Counted from the first letter of the stretch, positions 5,282 through 44,006 are shown. The stretch is DNA of 64,000 nt from Solirubrobacterales bacterium (GCA_035266025.1 DATFOB010000009.1:454-64453); one strand, 5' to 3'. Numbers and translations are program-made. The notes: generated from the sequence alone by a model not told the origin.

Positions 5282-5328
5282 CTATGCAGAACCCGGCAAC
5301 AGTGCCCGAGTCGCGGCCGCCGCCCGCC

Positions 5329-5748: not shown

Positions 5749-5749
5749 G

Positions 5750-6013: not shown

Positions 6014-6071
6014 GTGGCGGGGCCGGGTGGTGGGCACGAGTGCAAGTGTAGCACGGTGCAACACCTTGCTC

Positions 6072-9195: not shown

Positions 9196-9246
9196 CTGAC
9201 AATAAATGTATTCAAGTGAGCAATTTTCTATTCACTTGACTAAAAT
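9196..9246 (-). promoter_or_regulatory. AT-rich promoter/operator region of the nucleotidyltransferase gene
   Basis: This is the only strongly AT-rich stretch for several kb. It contains the inverted repeat TCAAGTGA-N12-TCACTTGA. On the coding strand, -10-like TTTATT/TATTGT boxes lie a few nt before the GTG start, so the transcript may be leaderless. Confidence 0.4.
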
Positions 9247-24428: not shown

Positions 24429-27400
24429 TTTCCTGCCCTCCGGTCGTTGTTGGCGTCTCGCGCCTGCGCTTGCTTCTTGCTCTGCTTGTGCTTCTTGTGG
24501 TGCTTTTTGGGCTTATGCTTCTTGTGGCGTTTCTTCTGCTTTGCGTTGCCCGGGCCGGTGAAGGTCGAGGTGGCCGGCGCCGCAGGGGAAAGCGGCGGGG
24601 CAGACGGGGCTCGGCAGGAGCCTGGCGTGTCTGGATTACACGGTGCAGGGGATGCCGGTGGCTCCGGGAACCCGCCGCCGATGCGGGCGTCATAGACCGA
24701 TTGACGTCCGCCTTGGTTTTCCCAGGTCAACGATCCTGACGTGGTGAAGTAGAGGTCAGTGCCATCGGCGCTGGCGCCGACAAATCGTATGTACTCGTGT
24801 TGTCTGGATCCTTCTTCTTCAGGATAATGCGGGATCGGTGGTTCGGTAGCGATGTGTAATACCTGCCCGTGCGCCCACTCATAGAGATTGGTATCTCCCG
24901 CGCGCGAACCGGATGCAAGGCGGTCAATTGAGGTAAAAAAGACCAGTGGCTGGCCGTCGTGCTCGACGAGTCGCATTTTGGGGTGGAACGGATTGTAAAA
25001 ATCTATGAACCCGAGTGGTCGGTTATTGCGCGGGGACACTGATGCTTTGCCGTCCTGGCGACAGGAGACGCACACGGTCCCTTCGGTTTTCGCCTCGGCG
25101 TCGTACAGGTAGGCCTCTTGCACGCCTCCGCTCACGTAGCCAGTAACGTTGGCATCCGATTCGAACAATATGTAGCGACCGTCGGGGCTGACCTGGAAGG
25201 ATTCGCGCTGAGGCAAAAGATCCGCGGAGAGGACACCGACATAACTGACTACGCCGTTCTCTGCACCGTATATGGAGTAGGTGTGCGCCTGCTGGTTTTC
25301 GACTAGGGTCTTGCCTTTGCCGGGGATTAACTGTCCGCGGGCGCCAAAGTAGACATGGGAGCCGTCCGTGGAGGAGCCGATGAACCGGCCAACCTGCGCG
25401 CCGCCGTTGCCGGGATCGACCGAGAGGTCGGTCAGGTCATCCGATTCGAGGTTGTATTCGTAGAGATCGGTGCCTTCCGGGCTGCTTTCGACGGTGAGGC
25501 CGGCATTCGCGATGAAGAAGACGCGCGAGCCGTCGGGGGTCGCGTATTGGTAACTCGCCCCGGTGTCAGGGATCGCGGTCTCCGATTGCGAGAGGTCGCG
25601 AGTGGTGGTCCCGTCTTCTCGGACGAAGATTCCGGTCTTGCCGACTTCTTCGGGGTTGGCGCCGATCTGGCGTTCGGCGCTGAAGAAGACGCGAGTGCCG
25701 TCCTCGGAGACGACGTTCGTGCCGGGAAAGCCTGCTGGGGCCGCGCCCACCGCGATTTCTCCGCTGGGGCCAGGAACCATGCCGACGCTGCGCAGGGTTC
25801 CCTCATCCCATTCGTAAAGCCTGTCCCCAGATAATAAATCCTCGATAGCAGGAACTCCTGGATAGCGATATTGACTCTGGAAGACAACCTTTTCGCAGTC
25901 GTCTGAAAAGCCGGAGACGAGGTAGCGTCCGAACCCCCCTTCAGGGAAGTTTTCCGGAACCAGCTTGCTGATCGCCGTATAGGAGCCGTCGAGGTTGCGA
26001 CGGTAGAGGTTGGTGCCGCCGGCTTCGACGGCGAGCCGGGTGCTGAAGTCCGAGGTAAGTGGCTGGTTGCTCTCTACGAACCCGCAGGAGAGGTCGGCGG
26101 AGATCCCCAGCGTCGTCGAGGACCAACTAATGACTTCAGAGGTTTCGTTGCGAACGGTGTTCGGCGGACTGAACTGGGAGGAGCTCCAGCCGCTCGCGCC
26201 GCGCCCGGCCCGATAGAGGACTACGCCGCCCTTGGTAGTTCCGGGGAGCCCGTTCGACACGCTGTAGACGAGCGATCCGGGTTCGGCGGCCGCCTGGAAG
26301 TCCAGCTCCTCGGTTAAGGACGCTCCTGACAAGGCAACCGGCCCGGCCTCCCTCGGAGAAACGAGCTCGAGACAGCGCTGGTCGGGCAGGCCGCAGGAGT
26401 TCAGCGTCTGGACCTTTTGGTCGGGGCTGTTGGTGGTGCCGGCGGTGCTGGTGGCGACGAGCCGGTAGTGGTAGGTGCTGGCGGCGGAGAGGCCCGAGAT
26501 CCTCGCGGTGACGAGCACCGGTTCCGTGCCGGAGCCGACGAAGGGCTCGAAATCGACCGGGACCCGGTGGCCGTAGGCGGTGCTCGGGCCCCACTCGAAG
26601 TGGTAGGAGGTGCCGAAGCCGCTGGGGTTGATCTTCGCTTCCAGGGTGGCGGACGTCTGATCGGCGTCGCGGGCGCGGATTTCGCTGAACCGGGGTGGAC
26701 CGGGAGTGGTGAAAGTCCCGACTTTGCTCGTCGCAGCACCGTTGGCGTTGGTGGCGATGAGGCGGAAGCGATAAGTGGCGTTGGGCTGCAGGCCGGTGAT
26801 CGCGGCGCTGACATTGTGATTTCCCGTATCCGCGACGATGTCGGCGGCGGCCGGGCTGCAGGGGGCTTCGTCGCTGAAGGCGGAGCTGGTCGTGAGGCCA
26901 TATTCGAATTTGCATTCGGAGACAACCACCCCTTCGGGGTTGACGGAGCCGTTGAGGGTGGCGCCGGTCGGGGCGATGTTGGTGGCGGCGTTGACCGTCA
27001 CGGCCGGAATCGGCACGTGGTCGAGCACTTCTATTCCCTGCGCGCCTTCCTCTATTCCCTGCGCGCCTTCCCGAGATACGTAGACGAGGCCCGCCGGACC
27101 AACCGCGATCCCCTGGACTTTGCTCGCGAGGCTGAGCTTCGATATTTCGACAGCTTCCGAGGGCCCGGAGGCGTCGTACTCGATGACTTCGCTGCCTTCG
27201 GCGAGCAGCACGTTGCCGGTCTCGGCGTCGACCGTGGTGGTACTGCCGGCGCCTTCGGAGACCGGGTAGGCGATTTTGCCGGTGGTGGCGCTCTGCTTGA
27301 AGAGGTCGCCTTCGAAGTCGAGGGCGAAGAGGGAGGTGGCGGTGGGTCCGGAGCCAGCGGCCAACGAGCACGGCTTTTCCGGGTTGGTGAGGCTCGTGAG

Positions 27401-28027
27401 AAAGTCGGCGTTCGTCGGCGGGTTGGCCGTTGGGGAAAACTCACGGATTCTCTCTTCTAGGCTTCCGCCCAAGTAGTCGCCCACGAAAACGTCACCAGCA
27501 GGACCGACCGTGACACCGCACGCTTCCGAGAAAGGATCGCTTTCCGATTCAGTCAACTGGCCGAGATATTCGCCCGAACTGGCGAAGATGTCGATCACGT
27601 TCGGGCTTTGCTGGGTGACGTAGATGTCGCCGTCGGTGACCCCTCCGGAGTTGTCGACGACGATCTGGGCTTCGGTCGCGGCAGCGAAGGTCAGGCCCGG
27701 TTCCGCCGCTTCGCCCTGCGGGGTTTCGTCCGGCCCGCTTTCACCGTCGATGACGTTGGTGCCGAGGGCGGAGAAGTCGTCCGGGCTCCCGTCGGGGTTG
27801 AAGCGGCTGATCGTGCCGCTCCCCCGATCCATGACAAAGAGATCGCCGGTCGATTGATCAACGGCCATCCCGGTGGGATTGACGAAGGTGGGCTGGGCTG
27901 CGCTTCCGAAAGCTTCTTTGAAGCGCAGCACCTGGGAGGCGGAGGCTTGGGCGCTCAGCACCAGGCCCAGGAGGAGAACTACAGCCAACATCATCGTCAT
28001 GCGCACAGCCTTGGGGTGGCGTTTCAC
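24425..28027 (-). CDS. Large secreted protein (about 1200 aa): NHL-like repeats, FN3/Ig-like modules, PD40/TolB-like beta-propeller repeats, poly-basic Lys/His tail
   Basis: The GTG at 28027 is preceded by AAGGAGAG, and the signal peptide is MTMMLAVVLLLGLVLSAQASA. NHL-like segment: PTGMAVDQSTGDLFVMD. Repeated modules: ATLNGSVNPEG..CKFEYG / ATLEAKINPSGFGTSYHFEWG. PD40-like segments: DGSRVFF, DGSHVYF, DGRYILF. The tail reads KQKKRHKKHKPKKHHKKHKQSKKQ. Confidence 0.8.
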   Translation of the reverse strand: MKRHPKAVRMTMMLAVVLLLGLVLSAQASASQVLRFKEAFGSAAQPTFVNPTGMAVDQSTGDLFVMDRGSGTISRFNPDGSPDDFSALGTNVIDGESGPDETPQGEAAEPGLTFAAATEAQIVVDNSGGVTDGDIYVTQQSPNVIDIFASSGEYLGQLTESESDPFSEACGVTVGPAGDVFVGDYLGGSLEERIREFSPTANPPTNADFLTSLTNPEKPCSLAAGSGPTATSLFALDFEGDLFKQSATTGKIAYPVSEGAGSTTTVDAETGNVLLAEGSEVIEYDASGPSEAVEISKLSLASKVQGIAVGPAGLVYVSREGAQGIEEGAQGIEVLDHVPIPAVTVNAATNIAPTGATLNGSVNPEGVVVSECKFEYGLTTSSAFSDEAPCSPAAADIVADTGNHNVSAAITGLQPNATYRFRLIATNANGAATSKVGTFTTPGPPRFSEIRARDADQTSATLEAKINPSGFGTSYHFEWGPSTAYGHRVPVDFEPFVGSGTEPVLVTARISGLSAASTYHYRLVATSTAGTTNSPDQKVQTLNSCGLPDQRCLELVSPREAGPVALSGASLTEELDFQAAAEPGSLVYSVSNGLPGTTKGGVVLYRAGRGASGWSSSQFSPPNTVRNETSEVISWSSTTLGISADLSCGFVESNQPLTSDFSTRLAVEAGGTNLYRRNLDGSYTAISKLVPENFPEGGFGRYLVSGFSDDCEKVVFQSQYRYPGVPAIEDLLSGDRLYEWDEGTLRSVGMVPGPSGEIAVGAAPAGFPGTNVVSEDGTRVFFSAERQIGANPEEVGKTGIFVREDGTTTRDLSQSETAIPDTGASYQYATPDGSRVFFIANAGLTVESSPEGTDLYEYNLESDDLTDLSVDPGNGGAQVGRFIGSSTDGSHVYFGARGQLIPGKGKTLVENQQAHTYSIYGAENGVVSYVGVLSADLLPQRESFQVSPDGRYILFESDANVTGYVSGGVQEAYLYDAEAKTEGTVCVSCRQDGKASVSPRNNRPLGFIDFYNPFHPKMRLVEHDGQPLVFFTSIDRLASGSRAGDTNLYEWAHGQVLHIATEPPIPHYPEEEGSRQHEYIRFVGASADGTDLYFTTSGSLTWENQGGRQSVYDARIGGGFPEPPASPAPCNPDTPGSCRAPSAPPLSPAAPATSTFTGPGNAKQKKRHKKHKPKKHHKKHKQSKKQAQARDANNDRRAGK

Positions 28028-28362
28028 GTAGCTCTCTCCTTGTCCCGTGGCCGCCTCCCTTGCCCCGGCCCGTCCAATCCTGGCACGGGTCCCCTGGCTT
28101 GGCCGGGCGGCCATTTCTCTCTCATGCCTTGGGCGCGACTCCGCTTCCCTGCTTCTTTGCGGACCCTCACTCTCAGCCGCACAAATAAGAACAGAGCCGG
28201 ACCAAATTGTCAAATCGCAATTCAGCCTTGGCGCTATCGGGAGAGTCTATCTCGCTTGTTAATGCCATCGAGGAGCGATCAAGAAGCTGAAGTTGTACTA
28301 GCTGTCCAGTCTTGGGCGTACCACTTGAAACTCCTCGCGCGCTAGGGGAGAGTCCATTGCCG

Positions 28363-32439: not shown

Positions 32440-34440
32440 CTAGTACCCAGCCTGCTCGGCCACGCTGCTCACCCCGTTCTCGCGGCTGACGGCGATGTGG
32501 AGCGAGCACTGGTCGACGATGTCGTCGGTGTGGGAGATGACGAAGATCTGCTGGAACTCGCCGCGGGAGAGCTCGATCAGCTGGTCCATCAGCATCCGGC
32601 GGCGGCCGACGTCCTGGCTGCCGAAGACCTCGTCGAGGATGACGAAGCTCTGTTCGGTTCCCCGCTGCTCGGCGAGGGTCCGGGCGAGGGCCAGGCGGAG
32701 GCAGAGGGCGGCGAGATCCTGCTCGCCGCCGGAGAAGCGTTTGCTCAGGTAGAAGTCCCGGCCCTCGGCGATCTCGAGGAAGTAGTCCTCGGTCAGGCGG
32801 ACCCGGGGGTAGGCCGCTTCGGTGATCTGCCGCAGCAGCCGGGAGGCTTCGGCTTCCACCATTGGGCGGGCGCGGCGCGAGGCCTCCTCCCGGTACTCCT
32901 CGAGCGCGCCCGCCAGGGCGGCGCGCAGCTCTAGCTCGCGACGCTCCTCGTCGATCCGCTTCTTCAGCTTGCTCGCGTCATTGAGCCGGCTGCGCGCGGC
33001 GGCGACCGCCTCGGACTCGGCTGAGGCCTTCCGGTTTGCCTCCTCCAACGCCTCGCGAGCGACCTCCAGGACCTCGCTCAGCCGGTCCCGTTCGGCGCTC
33101 ATCTCCTCCTGCGCCCCCGGCTCCGGGGCGATTTTGTCGGCGCTCTTGCGCAGCCTCGCGACCTCTTTGGCGGCTTCCTCGACTTCCTTGCTCTGTGCCT
33201 TGACCTGCTTTTCGAGCAGTTGCGCGCCGGCCGCCTGCTCGCGAAGGACGGCCATCCGGCGGGTCATCTCCTCCCGCTGCTCGAGCGCGGCCTTGGTCGC
33301 CGCCTCCAGCGCGACGAGCTCGCGATCGAGCTCGTCGTGGCGCCGGCGAGCGGCGGCGATCGCCGTGTCGAAGTCGGCGATCAGATCCTCGACGGTTCCC
33401 GCCAATTGCTGATGACAAGTCGGGCAGACCCCCGACTCGCCCTCCCCGGCCAAGGCCTCGCGGTGCCGTTCCTGATGCGCGAGCTCGGCTTTTGCCTCGG
33501 CGCGCCGGTCGCGCAGCTCTCCCAAGCGGTCGGCGTCGGCCGCCTCCAAAGCGCTGAGCGCGTCGAGACCCTCGCTCCCGCGCAAGGCGATTTCGAGCTC
33601 GGCCAGCTGCGATCTCGCCGCGAGCGCCGTCCGCAGCTGCTGGTCCCTGCCCTCGAGGCTCTCCTTCTTCAGCCTGAAGACGCCATCGGCCCGCTCGACC
33701 TCCAGGCGCCGCGATGCGTGTTTGCCGACCTGGGCGGCGAGCTTGTCGATTTCCGCGTTGGTCTTTTTCAGCCTCGCCTCGCCGGTAGCGATCTCTTTCT
33801 TCAGCCGTTTCACCGCGGGCGCCGCGTCGCGCGCCTCTTTTTCGCGCCGTTTGGCCTCCGCTTTGAGCTCGTCGACGTCGGGCGCCTCGCTGCGCAATCC
33901 CTCCAGGACCAGGCCCTGCTCGCGCGCATCGACCTCGGCGAGTTCGACCGCTTTGCGGAGGTGGCGGATGCCGAGCAGGCGCTCGAGCTGGTCTTTGCGC
34001 TTCCGCGGGTCTTTGTCGGCGAGGGCCTCGACCTCGTTCTGGGGTGCGTAGAAGGTGCCGCGAAACATCTCCCTGGTCAGGCCGAGGCGCACCGCCACCT
34101 CCCGCGAGGTGCTGCTGAGCCCGTTGGCGAGCTGCTCCTCCTCGGCGACGTCGGTAAGCGAGGCGTCCTTGCCGTCGATCCGGGTGACACGGAGCAGGCG
34201 GCCGCCGACTTCGAATTCCAGGGTGACCTGGCATTCCTCCCGCTTCACGCCCTCGCGTGCGACCCGGGTGGCGCCGGGGCCGCCCCTGCCGCCGTAGAGC
34301 ACCCACTCGATCGCGGCGAAGATCGTGCTCTTGCCGGCGCCGTTGACGCCGGTGATCGCGAAGACGCCGGAGGCGTTGAGGTCGAGGTCGATTTCGGCGA
34401 AGGAGCGGAAGTTCTCCGCCTCCAGGCGCAGCAGCCTCAC
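32440..34440 (-). CDS. sbcC: SbcC/Rad50-like ATPase (short, 666 aa)
   Basis: The GTG at 34440 forms a GTGA overlap with the sbcD stop. Walker A is ITGVNGAGKSTIF. A long coiled coil carries the zinc hook GVCPTCHQ. The signature motif is FSGGEQDLAALCLRLALA and the Walker B/D-loop is FVILDEVFGSQD. The 153 Arg-rich upstream codons of the track ORF were rejected. Confidence 0.85.
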   Translation of the reverse strand: MRLLRLEAENFRSFAEIDLDLNASGVFAITGVNGAGKSTIFAAIEWVLYGGRGGPGATRVAREGVKREECQVTLEFEVGGRLLRVTRIDGKDASLTDVAEEEQLANGLSSTSREVAVRLGLTREMFRGTFYAPQNEVEALADKDPRKRKDQLERLLGIRHLRKAVELAEVDAREQGLVLEGLRSEAPDVDELKAEAKRREKEARDAAPAVKRLKKEIATGEARLKKTNAEIDKLAAQVGKHASRRLEVERADGVFRLKKESLEGRDQQLRTALAARSQLAELEIALRGSEGLDALSALEAADADRLGELRDRRAEAKAELAHQERHREALAGEGESGVCPTCHQQLAGTVEDLIADFDTAIAAARRRHDELDRELVALEAATKAALEQREEMTRRMAVLREQAAGAQLLEKQVKAQSKEVEEAAKEVARLRKSADKIAPEPGAQEEMSAERDRLSEVLEVAREALEEANRKASAESEAVAAARSRLNDASKLKKRIDEERRELELRAALAGALEEYREEASRRARPMVEAEASRLLRQITEAAYPRVRLTEDYFLEIAEGRDFYLSKRFSGGEQDLAALCLRLALARTLAEQRGTEQSFVILDEVFGSQDVGRRRMLMDQLIELSRGEFQQIFVISHTDDIVDQCSLHIAVSRENGVSSVAEQAGY

Positions 34441-35555
34441 GCGCCGATGTCCTCTGCCGCGCGGGTCATGTAGTTCTCGCCGCGGGTGACGAAGACCTCC
34501 GCCTCGACGCCGGGGGGGACGCGGCGGGAGAGGAACTCGCGCAGCTCCGCGGGGGCTGCCGGCTGCGGCAGCCCGGTCCGAGCCTCGGTGAACTCGGGCT
34601 CGAGCTCGAGGTGGAGGCAGTGGCCGAACGCCTCGGCGATCTTGCGACGGTCGATCGCCCCGTACTTCTCGAAGCTGACGTTGGCGATCGGCACCTTGAC
34701 GATCGCCCCTTCCAGCCCCTTCCCTTTCGCCAGCCGGGAGATCGCCTTGGTGAGATCGTCGACTTTGCCGGCGTCGAGGGCGGGGAGGCGCTTGCGCGGT
34801 CGTCCCTCGATCTCGTGCAGCTCGAGGAAGGCGTCGTCGAGGGGCTCGGCGGCGAGGTCGATTCCGACGATCCCCTTGCGGCGCGCCTGATCGGCCCAAC
34901 TCAGCCGTTCCAGCGAGCCAGGGTAGACCGCGTTGACGCGCGGGCGCTCGAGCTGGTGGAGGTGGCCGAGGGCGATGTAGTCGAAGCTCGCCACCTGCTC
35001 GAGCAACTCTCCTGGCAGCTCCACCGCCCCCGGCTCGCCGGCGCCGACGCGGGCGAGGCCCTCGAGGCCGGCGTGGGCGACGAGGACGTTGAAGCGGGCG
35101 TCCGGGTCGGGCTCCGCCGCGGCGATCCAGCCGGCCATCGCCTCCGGATCGTTGCTGTGGGGGACGGCGGTGACGCCGAGGTCACCGAAGCGCAGCCGGC
35201 GTGGCTCGCCGTGGACGGCGTTGACGCCGAAGCGCTCCAGCAGCGAGAACGGGTGGGCGATCGCCCGCACCCGCGGGGTCTCGTGATTGCCGGCGATGAC
35301 CACGAACTCGATTCCCGCCGTGCGCAGGCGCTCGATCTGATCGAGCGCCACGCCCAGCGCCGCGGAGAACGGGTGGTAGCCGTGGAAGAGATCGCCGGAG
35401 TGGACGACGAGCGCCGGTTCGAGCTCGAGCACCCGGTCGATCGCCGTTGCCAACGCTTCGTAGACATCCTGCTCCCGCAGGTTGTGTCCCTCGGCGTCGG
35501 TGTGGTGGAGCTCCCGCCAACCGAGGTGCGTATCGGAAAGGTGGACGATCTTCAC
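34437..35555 (-). CDS. sbcD: SbcD/Mre11-like nuclease (calcineurin-like phosphoesterase)
   Basis: The phosphoesterase motifs are present in order: MKIVHLSDTHLG, VVHSGDLFHG, VIAGNHETP, LVAHAGLEG and ALGHLHQ. The GTG start forms a GTGA overlap with the upstream peptidase stop. Confidence 0.9.
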   Translation of the reverse strand: MKIVHLSDTHLGWRELHHTDAEGHNLREQDVYEALATAIDRVLELEPALVVHSGDLFHGYHPFSAALGVALDQIERLRTAGIEFVVIAGNHETPRVRAIAHPFSLLERFGVNAVHGEPRRLRFGDLGVTAVPHSNDPEAMAGWIAAAEPDPDARFNVLVAHAGLEGLARVGAGEPGAVELPGELLEQVASFDYIALGHLHQLERPRVNAVYPGSLERLSWADQARRKGIVGIDLAAEPLDDAFLELHEIEGRPRKRLPALDAGKVDDLTKAISRLAKGKGLEGAIVKVPIANVSFEKYGAIDRRKIAEAFGHCLHLELEPEFTEARTGLPQPAAPAELREFLSRRVPPGVEAEVFVTRGENYMTRAAEDIGA

Positions 35556-36133
35556 GGCAAAGGTGGTAGCAGCTTCAGCAGGCGCAGGCGAAGCCGCATC
35601 GCCGGAACCGAGACCTCGAAGCGCTTCGCCAGCGCCGGCAGGTTGAACCCGGTGGCGTGGGCTTGCTCGTTGACGAGGGGCTCCGGCATCAGCAGCTCGG
35701 AGGCGAAGATGTTGGCCTCGCGCTCCCGCCGGCGGCGGTCGGAGAGCTTGGCCGAAGAGGAGCGCTCGTCGATCTCTTTGATGTCGACGGCCCGGTCCGG
35801 GAAGACCTTGTGGACCACGGGCACGTGGAGGACGAGGTGGCCGACCTCGTGGGCGATCGTGAAGCGGCGCCGCCCGGGGCTGCGCCGTGCCTCGCCGCGG
35901 TCAACCCAGACGACCATCTCCTCGGCGTCGAGCATCCCGGAGAGGCGGCCCTGGTCGGCGGGGGCGCCCGGCAGCGTGCGGATGTCGTCGGCTTCGTCGA
36001 CGAAGAGACCGAGCAGGGCGCTGGCTATCCGCTCGACCGGGACGGGCGGCGCCTCGCCGACGTCGTAGCGCTCCTCGAAGTCGCGCAGCAGAGCCTGCGC
36101 GGCTGCGGCCGGCTCAAGCGTCGGGGCCGCCAT
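35552..36133 (-). CDS. ImmA/IrrE-family (COG2856, M78-like) zinc metallopeptidase
   Basis: The zinc motif HExxH occurs in FTIAHEVGHLVLH, followed downstream by REREANIFASELLMPEPLV. The ATG at 36133 overlaps the upstream gene by 20 nt. Confidence 0.85.
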   Translation of the reverse strand: MAAPTLEPAAAAQALLRDFEERYDVGEAPPVPVERIASALLGLFVDEADDIRTLPGAPADQGRLSGMLDAEEMVVWVDRGEARRSPGRRRFTIAHEVGHLVLHVPVVHKVFPDRAVDIKEIDERSSSAKLSDRRRREREANIFASELLMPEPLVNEQAHATGFNLPALAKRFEVSVPAMRLRLRLLKLLPPLP

Positions 36134-36764
36134 GGAAGAGCCGCTCGACGAGCTCGACCTCCGGGTCGGGAAGGCGCTCGGCCTCCGAGCGCGACGGCGG
36201 CGGGCGATCGCCGCCGCTTCGTCCCATCGCCGGGACGCTGCGCAGGGACGGGCCTTCCTTGGCGGGGCGCGCGGCGGCGAGGACGTCGCCGGCGTCGGCT
36301 TCGAAGACCGCGGCCAGGGAGTTGAGCAGGCGGCGCGAGAGCTTGGAGCCGAGCAGGGCCCCGGTCTCGAGGCGGTGGTAGTTGCGGGCCAGTGCCTGGC
36401 GTCCCTCCTCCCCCTCCACCTCGAAGTCCGCGGCCAGCTCCGCGACGACGGCGTCCGGCTCGATCCCGCGCGCGTTCCGCATCGCTTTCAGCGTCCCCGG
36501 CAGGATGCCGGAGGTGCCGCGGCTCCCGAGGACTTCCTCGACGATCGCGAGGGCGCGCTTGTACCCCTCGCTTTCGGTGCCGCCGCTCGAAGACTCCCCC
36601 GGCCCCCGAGCGAGGAAGACGTCGGCCAGCATCTGGCTCAGCTGCGGCCTGTCCTCCTCCGGGACGAGGCGCAGGTAGGACTCGATCGGCTTTTCCTCCC
36701 CTTCCCGGAGGTCGTCGAGCGCCTGCTGGAAGGCTCGCTCGAAAGCGTCTTCGCCCGCGCTCAT
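36114..36764 (-). CDS. XRE-type HTH domain protein (putative partner/substrate of the ImmA-like peptidase)
   Basis: The central segment LPGTLKAMRNARGIEPDAVVAELAADF...ARNYHRLETGALLGSKLSRRLLNSLAAVFEADAGDV fits the HTH_XRE pattern. I preferred the ATG at 36764 (ATGA overlap with the upstream stop) to the TTG at 36776. Confidence 0.6.
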   Translation of the reverse strand: MSAGEDAFERAFQQALDDLREGEEKPIESYLRLVPEEDRPQLSQMLADVFLARGPGESSSGGTESEGYKRALAIVEEVLGSRGTSGILPGTLKAMRNARGIEPDAVVAELAADFEVEGEEGRQALARNYHRLETGALLGSKLSRRLLNSLAAVFEADAGDVLAAARPAKEGPSLRSVPAMGRSGGDRPPPSRSEAERLPDPEVELVERLFHGGPDA

Positions 36765-37204
36765 GAGGTCTCCCAATCGTTCGGCCGGACCTGGCCGATT
36801 TCGATCGCCTCGTCGAGGCCCTTGATCAGGCGGACGCGCGGTGAGCGCGCCGAGAGCCGCGGCGGCTTCGGCTGCTGCGGCCAGGCGCGGTCGACGCAGG
36901 CGGCGGCGACTTCGGCGGCGAGGGCGTGGATCTGCGGCTGCGGCTCGGGCCGGGAGAGGCGCAGCAGCATCCGCGCCGCCGCGTCCTCGGTCGCCAGCTC
37001 GATCTCCTCCGCACCGAGGCCGCGCGCCTCGCCGCGGCGCCGGCAGACCCGCTCGATCACCGGCACGCCGCGGAGGCAGAGGGTCCAGAGGACGAACTCG
37101 AAGCGCTTGTCGTCGTGGACGACGGTTTCCGCGCGGACCGCCTCCAGCCGCAGGTCGTCGAGCATTTCGATCGCTCTCTCCTCGATGGGATCGAACTTTG
37201 ACAT
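36761..37204 (-). CDS. Hypothetical 147-aa protein within the sigma/SbcCD operon
   Basis: It starts with an ATG 4 nt after the sigma-gene stop and is coupled to the next gene by an ATGA overlap. I recognise no motif, and the composition is protein-like. Confidence 0.5.
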   Translation of the reverse strand: MSKFDPIEERAIEMLDDLRLEAVRAETVVHDDKRFEFVLWTLCLRGVPVIERVCRRRGEARGLGAEEIELATEDAAARMLLRLSRPEPQPQIHALAAEVAAACVDRAWPQQPKPPRLSARSPRVRLIKGLDEAIEIGQVRPNDWETS

Positions 37205-37208
37205 ACGC

Positions 37209-37829
37209 CTAAACCGCTCCCCGATCGCGCTGTCTTACACCTGTCGGCGCGTTCTCCCGCATCTTCTTGACGATCCGATGCCAGGCGGTGTCGACGGCGC
37301 CGCGTTTCATCCCGTGCCGCTCGGCGATCTCGGCCGGCGAGAGGTCGAGGACGAGGCGGTCGTGGGCGAGCGCGCGCTCGCGCTCATTGAGCCCCTGGAA
37401 GTAGAAGTCGAGGTCGGCTGCTGCTTCCCCTGCGGCCGGAACCGGCGGCCGCGGGTCGATCGCCACCAGCTCGCCGGGGTCGACCGGCTTCGACCGGGTC
37501 CGCGCCGAGCGGCGCCAGTAGTCCTTGATCGCGTAGTTGAGGTTGGCGGCGGCGACCCCGCGGAAGGAGGTGTCGAACTCGAGCTTCGTCCGCAGCAGCT
37601 GCGCCAGCCGCCGCAGCAGGTCCTGGGCGATCTCCTCGGCGTCGGCCGCGGGATCGTCGACCCCGCCGATCTTGCCGTAGGCGATCGAACGGCCCCAGTT
37701 CCAGTAGGGCTCGATCAACCGCGTGATCGCCTCCCGTTCGCCCGCCACGTCGCCGGCGGCACGCGCCGCCCGCGCCCGCCGCAGCAGGCGCTCGTCGCGC
37801 TCTTCGCTCTGATTCAAATTTCCGCTCAT
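37209..37829 (-). CDS. Sigma-70-family (ECF-like) RNA polymerase sigma factor
   Basis: The region 2-like segment is AEEIAQDLLRRLAQLL...FRGVAAANLNYAIKDYWRR. The region 4 HTH is LNERERALAHDRLVLDLSPAEIAERHGMKRGAVDTAWHRIVKKMRE. I chose the ATG at 37829 as start; the ORF opens at 37907. Confidence 0.7.
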   Translation of the reverse strand: MSGNLNQSEERDERLLRRARAARAAGDVAGEREAITRLIEPYWNWGRSIAYGKIGGVDDPAADAEEIAQDLLRRLAQLLRTKLEFDTSFRGVAAANLNYAIKDYWRRSARTRSKPVDPGELVAIDPRPPVPAAGEAAADLDFYFQGLNERERALAHDRLVLDLSPAEIAERHGMKRGAVDTAWHRIVKKMRENAPTGVRQRDRGAV

Positions 37830-37960
37830 CCCGGCTTTGCGACCTTTACCCACTAAGCCGCGGAACACTTCGGATTTCTTACGGACGAAGATAGTTGTCT
37901 GAGCCACCGGTCAGGGTTAGGTTGGTCAAGGCAGGTCTACTGGTAGTGGAGAGGATTGAG

Positions 37961-38353
37961 ATGGAGGGATCACGAAGGGCTTCCGAACGGCAGCCGTCAG
38001 GCTGGACGGTCTTCACCGGAGTGCTGCTGCTGCTGATCGGATCGCTGGACGCGCTGTGGGGTCTTGCTGCAGTCCTCAACAACGACGTGGTGGTGGTCGG
38101 AGGGCACGGGGTCCTCGTCGCCGACGTCACCCTCTGGGGCTGGATCCACCTGATCCTCGGCTCGATCGTCGCCATCACCGGAATGATGCTCTTCGCCGGC
38201 AGCCCCACCGCGAGGGTCCTGGCGATCTTCTTCGTCACGATCAACGCGATCGCGCAGATCGTCTGGTTCCCACTGGCGCCGCTCTGGGCGTTCCTGATCA
38301 TCCTGCTCGACGTGACCATCATCTACCAGCTCACCGCCCGCTGGGACGAGTAG
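37961..38353 (+). CDS. Small integral membrane protein (4 TM helices)
   Basis: The ATG at 37961 is preceded by GGAGAGG. Helices include GWTVFTGVLLLLIGSLDALWGLAAVL, LWGWIHLILGSIVAITGMMLF and VLAIFFVTINAIAQIVWF. Confidence 0.65.
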   Translation: MEGSRRASERQPSGWTVFTGVLLLLIGSLDALWGLAAVLNNDVVVVGGHGVLVADVTLWGWIHLILGSIVAITGMMLFAGSPTARVLAIFFVTINAIAQIVWFPLAPLWAFLIILLDVTIIYQLTARWDE

Positions 38354-38375
38354 TGGGGAGAGTGGCGAGGGCCGC

Positions 38376-38795
38376 TCAATCTCCACGCAGCTCGGAGAGC
38401 AGGCCCTGCGGGGTGAGGATCCGCACGCCGCCACGCTCGCCGATGGGTAGCAGGTGCTTCCGGTCGCCCGAGGCCAGGACGTCGGCCCCGACCTCGATCG
38501 CGGAGGCGAGGATGAGGTCGTCGGCGGGGTCTCCGGTCACCGGCTCCGGGGCCCCGGCCGGGGCCCTGACCGCCTGCACCGCGAGCTCTCTGAGCAGCGC
38601 CTCGGCCTCGCTCCACCGCTGCGGCTCGAAGTCGAGCTTCTCGGTGAGGATGCGCTCCAGCTCGACTACCACCGGGTCGAAGAGGACCAGCTCGAAGTGA
38701 CCGTCGATCGCTTCCTCGAGAACCCTGCTCGGCGGTCCCGCCGCGATGAAGGCGGAGACGAGGACATTGGTGTCGAGACCGGCCCGCAGGCTCAG
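38376..38795 (-). CDS. PIN-domain toxin (VapC-like) with no canonical start codon
   Basis: My own translation upstream of the track ORF gives LSLRAGLDTNVLVSAFIAAGPPSRVLEEAIDGHFELVLFDPVVVELERIL...ASAIEVGADVLASGDRKHLL, a complete PIN pattern. The only start-like codon near the N-terminus is the CTG at 38795 (CTGA overlap with the antitoxin stop). Confidence 0.55.
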   Translation of the reverse strand: MSLRAGLDTNVLVSAFIAAGPPSRVLEEAIDGHFELVLFDPVVVELERILTEKLDFEPQRWSEAEALLRELAVQAVRAPAGAPEPVTGDPADDLILASAIEVGADVLASGDRKHLLPIGERGGVRILTPQGLLSELRGD

Positions 38796-39028
38796 CGCCG
38801 CCGGGATCGCAGCTCGTCGACCACAGCCTCGGTGTCCTCGGGCCCGATCCCGAGCTTCTCGGCGCGCTCGCGACCGTAGCGCTGCAGGCCCGAAAGGCGC
38901 GTCACCTGCAGCTGGCGGCGCAGCGCGTCACGGACGACCTCGCTCTTGGTCTTGCCCACGCTGCGGGCAAGGGCCTCGGTCTCCTCGGCGAGGTCATCGG
39001 GAAGCGACACTGACAGCAGACGGCTCAT
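38792..39028 (-). CDS. Ribbon-helix-helix (CopG-like) antitoxin
   Basis: MSRLLSVSLPDDLAEETEALARSVGKTKSEVVRDALRRQL fits the RHH pattern, and the gene lies immediately upstream of the PIN gene. Confidence 0.75.
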   Translation of the reverse strand: MSRLLSVSLPDDLAEETEALARSVGKTKSEVVRDALRRQLQVTRLSGLQRYGRERAEKLGIGPEDTEAVVDELRSRRR

Positions 39029-39058
39029 ATGAAGACATCATATCGCCCCCCTCGAATA

Positions 39059-39131
39059 TGGCGAGGGCGGGATTCGAACCCGCGACACCACGATTTTCAG
39101 TCGTGTGCTCTACCAACTGAGCTACCTCGCC
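39059..39131 (-). tRNA. tRNA-Phe (anticodon GAA)
   Basis: The reverse strand reads GGCGAGGTAGCTCAGTTGGTAGAGCACACGACTGAAAATCGTGGTGTCGCGGGTTCGAATCCCGCCCTCGCCA. It folds as a cloverleaf with a 7-bp acceptor stem, anticodon loop CTGAAAA and T-loop GGTTCGAATCC. CCA is not encoded. Confidence 0.95.
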
Positions 39132-40824: not shown

Positions 40825-43104
40825 TTACCCCTCCGCCCGCATCAGCCCCATCAGCTCCAGCGCCCCCGCCTTGTGCAGCGGTTCGTTGAGGTTGCCGCAC
40901 TTCGGGCTCTGGACGCAGGAGGGGCAGCCGGATTCGCACGGGCACTCGGCGAGCAGGCGCTCGGCGTCGGCGAGCAGGCGCTCGAACTCCTCGTAGCCCC
41001 GCTTGGTGATCCCGACCCCGCCGGGGTGGCCGTCGTAGATGAAGATCGTCGAGCGGCCGGTCTGGAAATGGACGTTGGTCGAGAGGCCGCCGATGTCCCA
41101 GCGGTCGCACATCGCGATCAGCGGCAGGACCGCGATCTGGCTGTGCTCGGTCGCGTGCAGGGAGCCGAGCAGCGCCTCGGTCGGCAGGCGCCCGGCGAGC
41201 CGGTCCGGCAGCACGTACCAGAGCGCCTGGGTGACGAAGTTCTGCTCGGGCAGCTCGAGGGCGACGATGTCGATCGGTTCCTGGTCGGAGACGGAGACGC
41301 GCTGGAAGGCGATCACCTGCTCGGTGACGGAGACCTCGCCGAAGTTGAGCTGGACGCCGGCGACCTCGCGCTGCTCGTGGACGCGTTCGATGTAGATCTC
41401 GGTCTCTTTTTTCGGCCTCGTGTACCAGTCGCCGTCGAAGGCAGAGACGACCGCGCGGCGCTCCTCGATATCGAGCCGGTCGACCTCGTAGGAGCGGCCG
41501 AGGTGCAGGTAGACGGCGCCGGGGTGGATCGTCGTGAAGGCCCGCTCGGCCTCGACCAGGCCCAGCATCTCGCCGGAGGCCTGCTCGATCACCGCGACCG
41601 AGTCGGCCGAGGCCGAGCGCAGGGCGATCCGGTTGGCGACGTACTCGCTGCGGCGCGGCAGCAGCTTGCCGCCGGCGGGGCGCAGCTCCCCCGCTTCGAC
41701 CAGCCGTTCGGTCCGCTCGCGCCAGCCCTCGCCGAAGATCTCCTCGTCCTCGACAGTGAGCGGCAGCTCGTAGGCGGCGGCGACGAGGTGCCGGGAGGCG
41801 ATCTGCTCGTTGCCGTGGTCCAGGATCGCCGCCTCGACCGGCCGCCCGAGGAACTCCTCCGGGTGGCGGCAGAAGAACTGGTCGAGCGCGTCCTGGCCGG
41901 CGACGTAGACGGCGAGGCCGAGCCGGCGGCGTCCCGCCCGTCCCCACATCTGCCGCAGGCTGGCGACGGTGCCGGGGAAGGTGACGCAGATCGCCGCGTC
42001 GAGCTCGCCGACGTCGATCCCGAGCTCGAGCGCGTCGGTGGCGACTACCGCGAGCAGCTCGCCTGAGGACAGGCGCGCCTCGATCTCCCGCCGCTGCTGC
42101 GGCGTGTAGCCGCCGCGGTAGGGGGCGATCCGCTTCGCCAGCTCCGGCTTCCCCCGCCGCTCGAGGTTTTCGCGGGCGAAGCGTTGGATCAGCTCGATCC
42201 CACGGCGGCTTTTGAGGAAGCAGATCGTCCGCACCCCGTGCGTGACCAGCTCCGCAAGCAGGTCGGCGGCCTCCGAGAGGGCCGAGCGGCGGACGCCGGT
42301 GCGCTCGTCGAGCAGCGGCGGGTTCCACATCGCGATCTCGCGGCCGGCGCGCGGGGCGCCGTCGTCGTCGATCATCTCGAACGAGGTCCCGACCAGGCGC
42401 TCGGCCAGCTCGACCGGGTTGGCGATCGTCGCCGAGGCGAGCAGGAAGCGCGGCTCGGAGCCGTAGGCGCGGGCCAGCCGCCGCAGCCGTCGCAGGACGT
42501 TGGCGACGTGGGAGCCGAAGACGCCGCGGTAGGTGTGCGCCTCGTCGACGACGACCCACTCGAGGTTGGCGAGGAAGTCGCCCCAGCTCTTGTGGTTGGG
42601 GAGGACGCCCATGTGGAGCATGTCGGGGTTGGTGAGGATGAGGTTGGAGCGGCGGCGGATCGCCGGGCGCTCCTCGCGGGGCGTGTCGCCGTCGTAGATC
42701 GCCTCGCGCAGGCCGGGCGGGCGCAGCTGGGCGAGCTTCCGCGCCTGGTCCTGGGCCAGCGCCTTGGTCGGATAGAGGTAGAGCGCCCGGTCTTTGGGGC
42801 GGGCCGCGATCCCATTGAGGACCGGCAGGTTGAAGGCGAGGCTCTTGCCCGAGGCGGTGCCGCTGGTGATCACCAGATTGGAGTCGGCGGCCGCCTCGAA
42901 GGCTTCGAGCTGGTGGGTGTAGAGCGAGTCGATGCCGAAGCGCCCGAGCGCCTCGGCGAGCGCCGGGTGCAGCTCGGCCGGCAGCGGCGCCGGCCGCGAG
43001 CGGCGCTCCTCTTCGGAGGACTCGGCGACGATCCGGCCGTCCCGGCGCGCAGGGTCGATCGCGACCGCCCAATCCGAGGAGAGAAGCGAGCCGCCGCGCG
43101 CCAT
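40825..43104 (-). CDS. DEAD/DEAH-box helicase with a C-terminal DUF1998/MZB Cys-cluster domain (MrfA/YprA-like)
   Basis: The ATG at 43104 forms an ATGA overlap with the upstream stop. Helicase motifs: ITSGTASGKSLAF (motif I), VVVDEAHTYRG (II), SAT (III) and WGRAGR (VI). The C-terminus reads CPCESGCPSCVQSPKCGNLNEPL. Confidence 0.9.
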   Translation of the reverse strand: MARGGSLLSSDWAVAIDPARRDGRIVAESSEEERRSRPAPLPAELHPALAEALGRFGIDSLYTHQLEAFEAAADSNLVITSGTASGKSLAFNLPVLNGIAARPKDRALYLYPTKALAQDQARKLAQLRPPGLREAIYDGDTPREERPAIRRRSNLILTNPDMLHMGVLPNHKSWGDFLANLEWVVVDEAHTYRGVFGSHVANVLRRLRRLARAYGSEPRFLLASATIANPVELAERLVGTSFEMIDDDGAPRAGREIAMWNPPLLDERTGVRRSALSEAADLLAELVTHGVRTICFLKSRRGIELIQRFARENLERRGKPELAKRIAPYRGGYTPQQRREIEARLSSGELLAVVATDALELGIDVGELDAAICVTFPGTVASLRQMWGRAGRRRLGLAVYVAGQDALDQFFCRHPEEFLGRPVEAAILDHGNEQIASRHLVAAAYELPLTVEDEEIFGEGWRERTERLVEAGELRPAGGKLLPRRSEYVANRIALRSASADSVAVIEQASGEMLGLVEAERAFTTIHPGAVYLHLGRSYEVDRLDIEERRAVVSAFDGDWYTRPKKETEIYIERVHEQREVAGVQLNFGEVSVTEQVIAFQRVSVSDQEPIDIVALELPEQNFVTQALWYVLPDRLAGRLPTEALLGSLHATEHSQIAVLPLIAMCDRWDIGGLSTNVHFQTGRSTIFIYDGHPGGVGITKRGYEEFERLLADAERLLAECPCESGCPSCVQSPKCGNLNEPLHKAGALELMGLMRAEG

Positions 43105-44006
43105 CAGGCGGCGCTCCCCACCGGGCGGCAGATCCCGGCGGCGACGCGCATCGCCTGCAGGGACGATCGGTCGTGGATGCGGAGGATGTCGGCGCCCTCG
43201 CGGACGGCCAGCGTCACCGCCGCCACCGTGCCCCACTCACGCTCGCCGGGGGGCAGGCGCTCCTCCCAGGAGCCGGCGAGAACGGCGCCGATGAAGTCCT
43301 TGCGGGAGAGCGAGACGTAGAGCGGCAGCCCAAGCGAGCGCAGCTCGCCGAGCCGGCGCAGGATCTCGAGGTCCTGCGCGGGGCTGAGGTCGAAGTCGAG
43401 TCCGGGGTCGATCGCAATCTGCTCCTCCGCTACCCCAAGGTCCCGGGCCGCCTCGACTCTCCCCTCGAACCAGGCGCGCAGGTGGTCGACGACGTCGCCG
43501 TAGTCGCGCCATGGCCGGTCCACCCGCGGCGGCCCCTCGATGTGCATGAGGACATAGCCGCAGCCGCTCTCGGCGACAAGCTCGAACATCTCCTCGCAAC
43601 CGCCGGAGATGTCGTTGACGACGGAGGCCCCCGCCGCCAGCGCCCGCCGCGCCACCTCCGGGGAGAACGTATCCGCGGAGATTTGGGCCGCCGCGACGTT
43701 CCGTGGTTCCTTAGGCGTCCCCTGCACGACTAAGGAACCACGGAACTGCGTGACGAGGCCCTCGACGGCCGGGACCAGCGCCGCGGCCTCGTCCTCCGCC
43801 GACACCGGCGGGCCCGCCTTCGCCGCCACGGCGCCGACGTCGAGCATCTCGAACCCGGCCTCGGCCAGCGCCAGGCCGTCGGCCACCGCCTGCTCCGGGG
43901 TGCCGCTGCGGGCGCCCTCGAACATCGAGTCGACGGTGACGTTGACGATCCCGGCGCCGATCGGCTGCGCCAGGTCGAGAGTCCGGTCGGAGAGCCGCCA
44001 CGCCAT
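43104..44006 (-). CDS. Dihydropteroate-synthase-like (pterin-binding TIM barrel) protein with divergent active-site loops
   Basis: The overall DHPS order is conserved: GIVNVTVDSMFEG, MLDVGAVAAKAGPP, ISADT, VVNDISGG, YVLMH, IDPGLDFDL, SLSRKDFIG, ILRIHD. Several canonical residues are replaced (see finding). Confidence 0.75.
   Translation of the reverse strand: MAWRLSDRTLDLAQPIGAGIVNVTVDSMFEGARSGTPEQAVADGLALAEAGFEMLDVGAVAAKAGPPVSAEDEAAALVPAVEGLVTQFRGSLVVQGTPKEPRNVAAAQISADTFSPEVARRALAAGASVVNDISGGCEEMFELVAESGCGYVLMHIEGPPRVDRPWRDYGDVVDHLRAWFEGRVEAARDLGVAEEQIAIDPGLDFDLSPAQDLEILRRLGELRSLGLPLYVSLSRKDFIGAVLAGSWEERLPPGEREWGTVAAVTLAVREGADILRIHDRSSLQAMRVAAGICRPVGSAA
43698..43746. repeat. Perfect 17-bp-stem palindrome inside the DHPS-like coding sequence
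   Basis: GTTCCGTGGTTCCTTAG-N15-CTAAGGAACCACGGAAC. It is visibly lower in G+C than its surroundings and encodes ..FRGSLVVQGTPKEPRN... Confidence 0.9.

Follow-up and report, generated by a model that had tools for sequence, protein, structure and literature searches.

The 64,000-nucleotide stretch of a Solirubrobacterales bacterium genome analysed here (DATFOB010000009.1:454-64453; hereafter the window) contains a compact block of six minus-strand genes, in which putative regulatory proteins are joined to an SbcCD-type nuclease. The first gene (37209-37829, ATG start) encodes a divergent sigma-70-family factor of 206 amino acids (aa), which resembles extracytoplasmic function (ECF) sigma factors and has sigma2 and sigma4 regions (TIGR02937). 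It is followed by a gene for a 147-aa protein (36761-37204), predicted to form a five-helix bundle (residues 1-105) and a disordered tail with the motif P-x-L-R-(L/V), and by a gene for a 216-aa protein (36114-36764) modelled as a 3-helix N-domain, an XRE-like five-helix domain, a linker and a C-terminal helix. The remaining three genes encode a 193-aa Zn peptidase of the M78 family (ImmA/IrrE/CapP type; 35552-36133; PF06114) that has no GAF domain, a 372-aa SbcD/Mre11-type nuclease with a Metallophos domain and a complete phosphoesterase motif set (34437-35555), and a 666-aa SbcC/Rad50-type ATPase with a GTG start and matches to SMC_N, AAA_23 and SbcC_Walker_B (32440-34440). Two promoter-like motifs were found on the same strand. 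P1 (GTAAGAA-N15-CGGCTTA; 37854-37882) lies 5' of the sigma gene, with the G of GTAAG 53 nucleotides (nt) before the ATG, and P2 (GTAAGACAGCGCGATCGGGGAGCGGTTTA; 37210-37238) lies within the last sigma codons, with the start of GTAAG 34 nt before the ATG of the 147-aa gene.

The original prediction, made from the window alone, had described these genes as packed with almost no spacing, and the open reading frame (ORF) table agrees at every junction. From the sigma gene onward, these are a 4-nt gap at 37205-37208 (also read directly), an ATGA shared by the 147-aa and 216-aa genes (36761-36764), 20 nt shared by the 216-aa and M78 genes (36114-36133), and a GTGA shared by the M78 gene and sbcD (35552-35555) and again by sbcD and sbcC (34437-34440). 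The motifs it listed, namely HEVGH, EREANIFASELLMP, CPTC, FSGGEQ, Walker A/B and the SbcD phosphoesterase motifs, are all present in the translations. The G+C content at third codon positions is 0.81-0.92 for all six genes, typical of this 69% GC genome, and all six are under purifying selection (pairwise dN/dS 0.10-0.31 against close relatives). The 147-aa and 216-aa ORFs, whose failure in coding or homology tests had been named in advance as refuting, pass both kinds of test, as judged from dN/dS and from their homologues.

A scan of one genome per GTDB species retrieved 21 loci, all from metagenome-assembled genomes (MAGs) of uncultured Solirubrobacterales or 'Actinomycetes'. Among these loci, L023 is cut by a contig end and L007 ends inside SbcC. 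Comparison of the window proteins with every locus by tblastn indicated that, on contigs of sufficient length, the six-gene order and the junctions are the same. Order, gene lengths and junction types agree in the 21 loci and in six remote ones; in the latter, identity to the window proteins is 47% for SbcD, 50-53% for the M78 peptidase, 31-48% for the 216-aa protein, 27-34% for the sigma factor and 25-42% for the 147-aa protein. Every remote member of the 147-aa family with readable context (within L026-L035) shows this arrangement, and the named members of the remote branch are Thermoleophilaceae and Solirubrobacterales MAGs. Loss of adjacency between the four upstream genes and sbcCD in related genomes had been named in advance as the result that would speak against a functional unit; in the related loci the four genes always adjoin sbcCD. 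Chance adjacency of the six genes was ruled out by their conservation across all loci. Judged from these genomes, the six genes are one conserved, vertically inherited chromosomal operon of uncultured Thermoleophilia.

The surroundings of the operon are chromosomal as well. In one setting (context A), the block lies between leuS-SpoIIM-HTH_31 and rsfS-nadD-proAB. In the other (context B), which is that of the window itself, it is flanked by an MrfA/Hrq1-type helicase and a GH15 gene on one side and by an alpha/beta-hydrolase-cyclase and a TetR gene on the other. In L032, the most remote lineage, the block adjoins obg-proB-proA-nadD-rsfS, and since the rsfS-nadD-proAB-obg neighbourhood is shared by the main clade and L032, it looks ancestral. 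The base composition of the operon matches the remainder of the window. No tblastn match to the 216-aa protein was found in 72,556 plasmids or 50,697 phages, and IMG/VR yielded no confirmed operon locus; a mobile-element origin was rejected on these empty searches. By distribution and setting, the block behaves as a vertically inherited chromosomal operon and not as a mobile defence island.

Alignment of the DNA upstream of the sigma gene across loci revealed an ECF-type motif, tGTAAG/C-N17-CGGnnTA. In a regular-expression search of 524 kb on both strands, the strict form GTAAGAA-N15-CGGnnTA occurs at two sites per locus only, always on the operon strand. Within the 64-kb window, GTAAGA-N16-CGGNTTA has two matches, P1 and P2, against 0.05 expected, and a search for further regulon members found no other strict copy, either in the window or in some 700 kb from related loci. 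P1 is located upstream of the sigma gene in every locus, remote ones included, and the remote loci also have P2. Ahead of its own gene, the sigma factor has what appears to be an autoregulatory promoter, whose -35 element is AAC-type and whose -10 element is CGT-type. The distance from the GTAAG of P2 to the start of the 147-aa gene is 34-38 nt in 28 of the 28 loci examined. Because the -35/-10 geometry of P2 would put the transcript start at the 147-aa start codon, a leaderless mRNA is predicted.

The conservation of P2 does not follow the reading frame in which it lies. In most lineages its Val-Arg is encoded by GTA-AGA, two codons that are rare in this genome (2.6% of Val and 0.7% of Arg codons, respectively), and in L035 an identical GTAAGAA falls in a different frame (GGT-AAG-AAA, Gly-Lys-Lys). 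The rare codons and this change of frame indicate that the constraint on P2 acts on the DNA and not on the protein. The variants of P1 and P2 shift together in each genome, with GTAAC in L028 and L032, GTAAGAG in L030 and L033, and GTAAGAA in L035 and the main clade; the GTAAC lineage has an altered sigma region 4.2 helix (SEAFRVAQHR vs RGAVDTAxHR). The halves of the motif differ in sequence and do not form a consistent palindrome. No housekeeping (sigma-70-type) promoter was predicted in 32.0-38.4 kb, and neither a housekeeping promoter nor an intrinsic terminator was found within the block on the coding strand. The most likely reader of both P1 and P2 is the ECF-like sigma factor that the operon itself encodes. 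The earlier description of this factor as private agrees with a bipartite motif that is restricted to two fixed operon sites and co-varies with the operon.

Further signals were observed upstream of P1 in some loci. Context-A loci carry, divergent from the sigma gene, a genuine HTH_31 (XRE) gene of 81 aa (L001:8923-9168), with orthologs in L009, L011-L013, L016, L017 and L025. A conserved GG(A)ACTTCTCAC is located about 30-60 nt upstream of P1 in the context-A loci, and might serve as the promoter of the neighbouring gene or as a second regulatory input. In L032 (about 9200-9330; also L028 and L029), inspection by eye revealed an inverted -35 word 5' of P1, GTTACACA ... TGTGTAAC. On the opposite strand, TGTGTAAC-N17-CGGCAT is a possible third, divergent sigma-dependent promoter for a 231-aa gene.

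The sigma factor is divergent from described families. It scores 43.3 bits against NCBIfam TIGR02937, with a cut-off of 42.9, and residues 34-193 align to model positions 2-164. The Pfam models Sigma70_r4 and r4_2 match below gathering score, region 2 was not detected by Pfam, and the phmmer matches in PDB have E values of 0.14 or worse. Region 2-like residues are conserved among the orthologs (DAEEIAQDLL...F..VA..NL..AIKDY.RR). The assignment to the sigma-70 family, which had been made with regions 2 and 4 regarded as recognisable, is retained by TIGR02937, just above its threshold, while in Pfam region 4 is sub-threshold and region 2 is not reported. The ATG start is kept in the orthologs, whose products are 205-217 aa long. 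A GTG at 37907 was rejected as the sigma start: the orthologs align from the ATG at 37829, the GTG is not conserved, and P1 would fall inside the ORF.

The 147-aa protein belongs to a narrow family. It has 67 close relatives (64-94% identity), almost all of about 147 aa, and a HMMER search of its family profile against 1.84 billion representative proteins yielded 41 clusters (50% identity) only. The dN/dS of the gene is about 0.19. No family match was found in Pfam, NCBIfam or PADLOC. The AlphaFold2 (AF2) model has a predicted local distance difference test (pLDDT) score of 82.6, and its top Foldseek matches are sigma region 2 domains, those of sigma-E (4lup) and SigC (2o7g), both with a target-normalised TM score (TMt) of about 0.6, and those of sigma-S and sigma-B; these matches are weak, with E values of about 2. 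Two ideas about this protein were discarded. A paralogous relationship to region 2 of the operon sigma gave an hhalign probability of 3.8%, and Pfam at E<=10 returned nothing consistent. Metal- or redox-sensing cysteines were rejected since C43, C54 and C103 of the main clade are lost in remote members. The P-x-L-R-(L/V)-(V/I) motif of the tail persists in the remote members, and its Leu-Arg is similar in sequence to the sites, hydrophobic|Arg, at which DdrO and CapH are cleaved. As the gene directly follows an ECF-type sigma gene, the natural guess is an anti-sigma, decoy or adaptor role.

Relatives of the 216-aa protein number 244, and the window protein is 100% identical to a protein from a Solirubrobacterales MAG (P0068). 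Its AF2 model has a mean pLDDT of 70.5 and consists of an N-terminal 3-helix domain, a central five-helix domain (residues 91-165, pLDDT about 90), a disordered linker of about 30 residues and a C-terminal helix. In Foldseek, the central domain gave local matches to the helix-turn-helix (HTH) domains of ClgR, C.BclI and DdrO (probability 0.8-0.94) and of BldD (TMt 0.53-0.62 over the four), and HTH_31 is weakly matched in 9 of 35 orthologs (best E value 7e-4). The earlier label of an XRE-type HTH protein draws weak support from these matches but not from Pfam, which does not recognise the window protein. It is plausible, from the model and the ortholog matches, that the protein carries an XRE-like HTH, although this assignment is weakly supported. 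Its gene overlaps the M78 gene by 17-20 nt in the main clade and adjoins it in all remote loci. Three elements are invariant at the deepest divergence: YLxxVP in the N-domain, Arg182 in the (V/A)PAMGR linker, and the C-terminal LVxRLFxGGxDA helix. In CapH, the F82|R83 cleavage site immediately precedes the C-terminal helix by which CapH docks on its peptidase, and by analogy the linker motif and terminal helix of the 216-aa protein would fit this cleavage and docking pattern.

The most distant relative of the 216-aa protein, P0358 (JGI 3300041965; E value 2e-16), has a weak HTH_31 match. Its gene overlaps an upstream gene for a 212-aa unknown protein and faces an M78 gene on the other strand, and the contig carries no sigma factor and no SbcCD. 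Because P0358 is paired with M78 without SbcCD, the HTH/M78 pair may predate its recruitment to the nuclease operon.

The peptidase scores 62.8 bits against Peptidase_M78 (PF06114; cut-off 22), its best PADLOC match is capP (4.7e-25), and its closest solved relatives are CapP (7t5t, 1e-6) and IrrE (8slm, 7.8e-4; 3dte, 2.2e-3). H95, E96, H99 and E137 are invariant in an alignment of 13 orthologs spanning the family, and the Arg residues preceding HExxH are invariant across the M78 family of the operon. The original call of an ImmA/IrrE-type peptidase is borne out by this score and by the intact HExxH and downstream Glu. In CapP and IrrE, a C-terminal GAF domain and the peptidase domain together make a groove that binds single-stranded DNA (ssDNA). 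The alignment of the operon peptidase ends at residue 177 of 291 in CapP and at about 170-178 of 291-301 in IrrE, and in the PADLOC capP model, which has 242 positions, the match is confined to 8-150. About a third of CapPs contain a cysteine-switch loop after the HExxH helix; in CapP, an autoinhibitory Cys is located 13 residues past the second His and is followed by acidic residues. In seven of seven remote orthologs of the operon peptidase, a Cys is found 14 residues past the second His, followed by R-P-x-D, and in the window clade this position is occupied by Asp (Asp113 in the window) and the peptidase contains no Cys. The remote Cys, judged by position only, is a lead towards a CapP-like cysteine switch and not a demonstration of one.

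Both nuclease subunits have the residues expected for activity. SbcD contains motifs I-V (DxH, GD, GNH[D/E], H and GHxH, present as HLSDTHLG, HSGDLFH, IAGNHE, VAHAG and LGHLH) and scores 51.5 bits against Metallophos (cut-off 21.5). Its best solved relative is Mre11 of M. jannaschii (1.6e-20, residues 1-273), and it is nearer to archaeal Mre11 than to SbcD of E. coli or Thermotoga. SbcC contains GVNGAGKST (Walker A), FSGGEQ (signature), ILDEVFG (Walker B) and ISHT (H-loop), with the CPTC hook at residue 339, and scores above the cut-offs for SMC_N (72.4), AAA_23 (69.4) and SbcC_Walker_B (30.6). These four domain matches and the presence of every named motif agree with the original identification as SbcCD. 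At the level of NCBIfam, Mre11_Sulfo (7.6e-28) and sbcd (3.8e-18) match SbcD under their family cut-offs, TIGR00619 sbcd scores 66.2 against a cut-off of 77.65, TIGR00618 sbcc scores 90.8 against 478.5, and the Mre11/Rad50 equivalogs score far under their cut-offs. By these scores, SbcD and SbcC are divergent superfamily members and not equivalogs of any named subfamily.

The length of the SbcC coiled coil varies within the lineage, from proteins of 653 aa to proteins of 888 aa, through paired deletions, and the zinc hook is kept in all orthologs. The SbcC genes compared with that of the window included those of L001, L002, L008, L011, L022, L030 and L032. Compared with orthologs of about 880 aa, the window SbcC has gaps of 112 and 116 aa symmetric about the hook. 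In the window, L005 and L010, 112-124 aa are missing on one arm and 116-120 aa on the other, and in L002 and L008 63-69 and 83 aa are missing. Such paired deletions fit retention of the antiparallel coiled-coil register. SbcC had been described as short, and 666 aa is correct for the window; this is a derived form, as most orthologs have the ancestral length of about 880 aa.

Taken together, the block is a real and strongly conserved module whose mechanism is partly established: the gene content, the promoter motifs with their constraint on the DNA and the intact catalytic residues are shown. We propose that it is a self-contained, probably DNA-damage-inducible SbcCD expression module with two coupled control layers, and we give this reading a probability of about 0.5. 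In the first layer, the sigma factor would read P1 to transcribe its own gene, giving positive autoregulation, and would read P2 to produce a leaderless mRNA covering the five downstream genes, from the 147-aa gene to sbcC. This layer, with its own sigma factor and two dedicated promoters, is well supported. In the second layer, the 216-aa HTH protein, the 147-aa helical protein or both would keep the sigma factor or its promoters off. Products of DNA damage such as ssDNA would cause the M78 peptidase to cut the inhibitor at a conserved linear motif in a disordered region, and loss of the inhibitor would release a self-amplifying burst of SbcCD, by which hairpins, blocked ends and double-strand breaks would be processed. 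We infer the second layer, with its inhibitor and protease release, from CapH/CapP, DdrO/IrrE and ImmR/ImmA. A DNA-related signal is the most economical trigger since a DNA-end nuclease is the only enzymatic output of the operon. The sense-and-respond module of the original prediction is therefore kept as far as the conservation of the unit and the private-looking sigma factor are concerned, and needs correction in its HTH call, its damage sensing and the novelty of its sigma trio.

Several observations weigh against this reading. The missing GAF domain is half of the ssDNA groove of CapP and IrrE, and the window peptidase contains no Cys. The HTH assignment is weak: the window 216-aa protein has no match in Pfam, NCBIfam or PADLOC, and its Foldseek HTH matches have E values of about 1. 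Sequence-level proof that it is an XRE protein failed, as nothing was found with its profile among PDB sequences (hmmsearch) or with hhalign against the alignment of the neighbouring genuine XRE (HTH_31) protein. No palindromic operator was found, and some other factor could in principle read the conserved motif. Every carrier is the MAG of an uncultured organism. No named cultured Solirubrobacterales turned up with the operon, so it is not universal in the class.

An unlikely alternative is anti-phage or anti-plasmid defence, in which an SbcCD-like effector would destroy invading linear or hairpin DNA under the control of a CapH/CapP-type and sigma switch, as in Bub, DISARM and the cyclic oligonucleotide-based anti-phage signalling system (CBASS). 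CapH/CapP pairs are typical of defence operons, 24 of them also with a sigma factor, and the PADLOC models that rank first for the peptidase (capP) or match SbcC (LmuB and mad3) come from this field. The setting offers some support, with Bub/Bil-like genes adjoining the block in L033-L035, toxin-antitoxin genes and a tRNA flanking it in the window and L032, and a patchy distribution within the class that leaves out the named cultured relatives. The PADLOC matches are nevertheless confined to generic components: the peptidase matches capP, and the Rad50-like ATPase matches LmuB, mad3 and PbeC. The LmuB and mad3 matches are no better than that to archaeal Rad50 and reflect the shared SMC/Rad50 head, and the other four proteins have no significant match (SbcD, 0.0086 to PDC-S60). 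The partners of CBASS, Lamassu, MADS and Pbe (CD-NTase and effector, LmuA, mad1-8, PbeABD) were not found in the block or its flanks, and the block has no second effector, methylase or other self/non-self component. The cargo is invariant in about 27 loci across deep divergence, the plasmid, phage and viral collections yielded no copies, the housekeeping neighbourhood persists over the deepest split, and composition and dN/dS resemble those of core genes.

Control by DNA damage is itself dispensed with in another alternative, which we regard as quite improbable. The block would be a sigma/anti-sigma stress module, with the 147-aa protein as a cytoplasmic anti-sigma factor that responds to another cue such as redox state or desiccation, and with the 216-aa/M78 pair as a toxin-antitoxin (TA)-like or housekeeping passenger. 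The gene right after an ECF sigma gene usually encodes its anti-sigma factor. The 147-aa gene directly follows the sigma gene, its product is a compact helical bundle in the AF2 model, and C43, C54 and C103 are conserved in the main clade. The peptidase has no GAF/ssDNA module, and XRE/M78 pairs have been reported as TA-like systems (PMC10538038). The cysteines, however, are not conserved in remote members, and Foldseek retrieves sigma region 2 domains for the 147-aa protein, weakly, rather than anti-sigma domains. Moreover, the six genes are translationally coupled and were never separated in evolution, and their sole enzymatic output is a DNA-end nuclease.

It is very unlikely that the motif is a two-site operator of the 216-aa HTH protein, with an unrecognised housekeeping promoter and a sigma factor that acts elsewhere in the genome: CapS, CapH and DdrO-type repressors do bind their own regulatory regions and a partial inverted repeat, GTAAG...CTTAC, is present in some loci (e.g., L001), but this repeat is not conserved, the halves of the motif differ, are separated by a non-conserved spacer of 15-17 nt and always have the same orientation as the genes, with AAG/AAC at about -33 and CGG at about -12 they are arranged like ECF -35/-10 elements, P2 is fixed at 34-38 nt from the start codon, no sigma-70-type promoter is predicted, and the roughly 700 kb of flanks contain no extra copies, as would fit a private sigma factor that regulates itself.

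The damage-inducible SbcCD module proposed here can be extended to a new type of circuit, a speculative step to which we assign a low probability. A GAF-less CapP-like peptidase, with Asp or Cys in its switch loop, would remove a sigma inhibitor, and Mre11-Rad50 would be both output and sensor. The part of the inhibitor would fall either to the 216-aa HTH protein or to the 147-aa sigma2-like bundle as a decoy or anti-sigma factor, and ssDNA from Mre11-Rad50 resection would turn the peptidase on in a self-amplifying break-sensing loop. If true, this would be a third actinobacterial DNA-damage response beside LexA/RecA and PafBC.

Several neighbouring genes were also recorded. The MrfA/Hrq1-type DNA-repair helicase (40825-43236, minus strand; DEAD, Helicase_C, WHD_HRQ1 and MrfA Zn-binding domain) lies 3 kb upstream of the operon and is 92-97% conserved at that position in the context-B loci L002, L005, L006 and L015. 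The gap between the operon and the GH15 gene contains a divergent DUF7144 membrane protein gene (37895-38353, plus strand), a PIN_3 fragment that covers model positions 42-115 only (38376-38672, minus strand), a gene for an RHH/CopG antitoxin (38792-39028, minus strand) and tRNA-Phe (39059-39131, minus strand), which is the only RNA element detected by an Rfam scan of the window. This 37895-39131 segment is variable, L002 carrying Kelch/PASTA/WS_DGAT genes in its place, and may be a small insertion beside a tRNA. At the other end, a gene for a predicted membrane-anchored protein of about 380 aa without a Pfam match (31.2-32.4 kb, plus strand) ends at 32401 and converges on SbcC with a 38-nt gap. 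It sits between SbcC and the hydrolase-cyclase gene and is absent there in L002, L005 and L006, in which the cyclase gene comes directly after SbcC. Two tandem giant ORFs of 1289 and 1262 aa (20559-28213, minus strand) have a lower GC content of 0.59-0.66 and a positive GC skew. One has NHL, FN3 and PD40 repeats and the other has no Pfam or PADLOC match; they may encode acquired surface or secreted proteins.

In three remote loci, Bub/Bil-like ubiquitination genes are located directly beside the block (L034:7284-9128, divergent; L035:7668-8984; L033:19284-20438), with Multi_ubiq, DUF6791/ThiF E1-like, BubE and BilD_N/ThiF content. Bub operons are often paired with CapH/CapP regulators in the literature, and the regulators of the block may also serve these Bub/Bil-like neighbours. 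L035 additionally carries, at 3829-6494, a second M78 gene and a gene for a 322-aa protein with faint Sigma70_r4_2/HTH_23 matches, about 4-6 kb upstream of the six-gene block and on the opposite strand.

SbcCD/Mre11-Rad50 is usually viewed as a constitutive, free-standing housekeeping nuclease. Here it is tied to a private sigma factor and a protease of the CapP/IrrE/ImmA family in one transcription unit, in a class-level lineage of soil actinobacteria that are abundant but uncultured. If the damage-inducible reading is true, an ssDNA-sensing protease switch would reach a core chromosomal repair nuclease in Actinomycetota, beyond defence islands and Deinococcus. The operon would also be a natural case of protease control over an autoregulated sigma factor, with a leaderless-mRNA promoter inside the sigma ORF, and would provide a compact (5.5 kb) orthogonal set of sigma factor, promoters and protease that could be reused in heterologous hosts. 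The reading makes concrete predictions: two transcription starts, two candidate cleavage motifs and one docking helix.

No account of this gene composition, SbcCD with M78, XRE and sigma genes, was found in the literature searched, the ECF reclassification paper included, which agrees with the original statement that no described system of this kind was known. The same literature contains no mention of SbcCD/Mre11-Rad50 as cargo, of the 147-aa family or of a promoter inside a sigma ORF. The novelty applies to the composition as a whole. A sigma-70-family factor is co-encoded with capH/capP in 24 CBASS systems, and CapH/CapP also occur with DISARM, Bub and other systems, so the sigma-HTH-peptidase trio is not unprecedented. 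CapK/CapS, another described regulator pair, was considered in the comparison as well.

The closest regulatory relative is CapH and CapP (Lau et al. 2022, 10.1101/2022.04.27.489752; PMC13228613), with which the operon shares the placement of an HTH gene, here a putative one, immediately upstream of an M78 gene. Binding of ssDNA switches on CapP and IrrE, which then cleave the HTH protein paired with them at a hydrophobic|Arg site. The best PADLOC and PDB matches of the operon peptidase are to CapP, the HExxH, Glu and preceding Arg residues are kept, a Cys occurs in a switch-loop-like segment of the remote orthologs, and the candidate substrate has a C-terminal helix. In contrast to CapP, the operon peptidase has no GAF domain and hence no peptidase/GAF ssDNA groove, and in the window Asp replaces the Cys. 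XRE partners have an N-terminal HTH and a C-terminal oligomerisation domain with the cleavage site, an architecture that the 216-aa protein does not share: it has an extra N-terminal domain and its putative HTH is central. The regulator genes of the operon point the same way as the cargo genes, to which they are translationally coupled, and are not divergent from them; the cargo is SbcCD and not CBASS, Bub or DISARM, an additional 147-aa protein is present, and the operon is chromosomal and vertically inherited.

In DdrO and IrrE/PprI of Deinococcus (PMC10904395), an M78 peptidase cleaves an XRE repressor to turn on DNA-repair genes after damage. IrrE is among the solved relatives of the operon peptidase, Foldseek matched the 216-aa protein locally to, among others, the HTH of DdrO, and both systems are chromosomal, that of Deinococcus serving a core stress response. 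Unlike the operon peptidase, IrrE has a GAF domain, sits outside its target operons and has no dedicated sigma factor. DdrO/IrrE controls a dispersed regulon through the palindromic RDRM operator, whereas the detectable targets here are the operon's own two promoters only. ImmR/ImmA of ICEBs1 and phage-like elements is a proteolytic anti-repression switch that controls excision and transfer of the element. As in that pair, a small GAF-less peptidase is encoded beside an HTH substrate, here a candidate one. The operon differs in that it has no sign of mobility and in that its peptidase is closer in sequence to CapP/IrrE than to other solved proteins.

The sigma factor and the 147-aa protein recall autoregulated ECF sigma/anti-sigma pairs, with a small sigma factor that apparently consists of sigma2 and sigma4 only, a small partner gene immediately downstream, and an AAC/AAG-like -35 and a CG-rich -10 upstream of the sigma gene. 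Sigma-O/RsoA of Bacillus subtilis is a two-subunit sigma factor, and the fold of the 147-aa partner, nearest to sigma region 2, recalls RsoA, weakly. In contrast to these systems, the operon sigma is marginal against sigma profiles and its own region 2 appears intact, the 147-aa partner has no sequence similarity to sigma or known anti-sigma domains, and a second promoter lies within the sigma ORF.

The nuclease genes resemble other SbcCD/Mre11-Rad50 pairs in their Mre11 motifs, Rad50 Walker A/B, signature and CxxC hook, antiparallel coiled coil and overlapping sbcD/sbcC genes. The pair differs in scoring under the NCBIfam sbcd, sbcc, Mre11 and Rad50 cut-offs, and it is never free-standing in this lineage, where it is always part of a regulatory operon.

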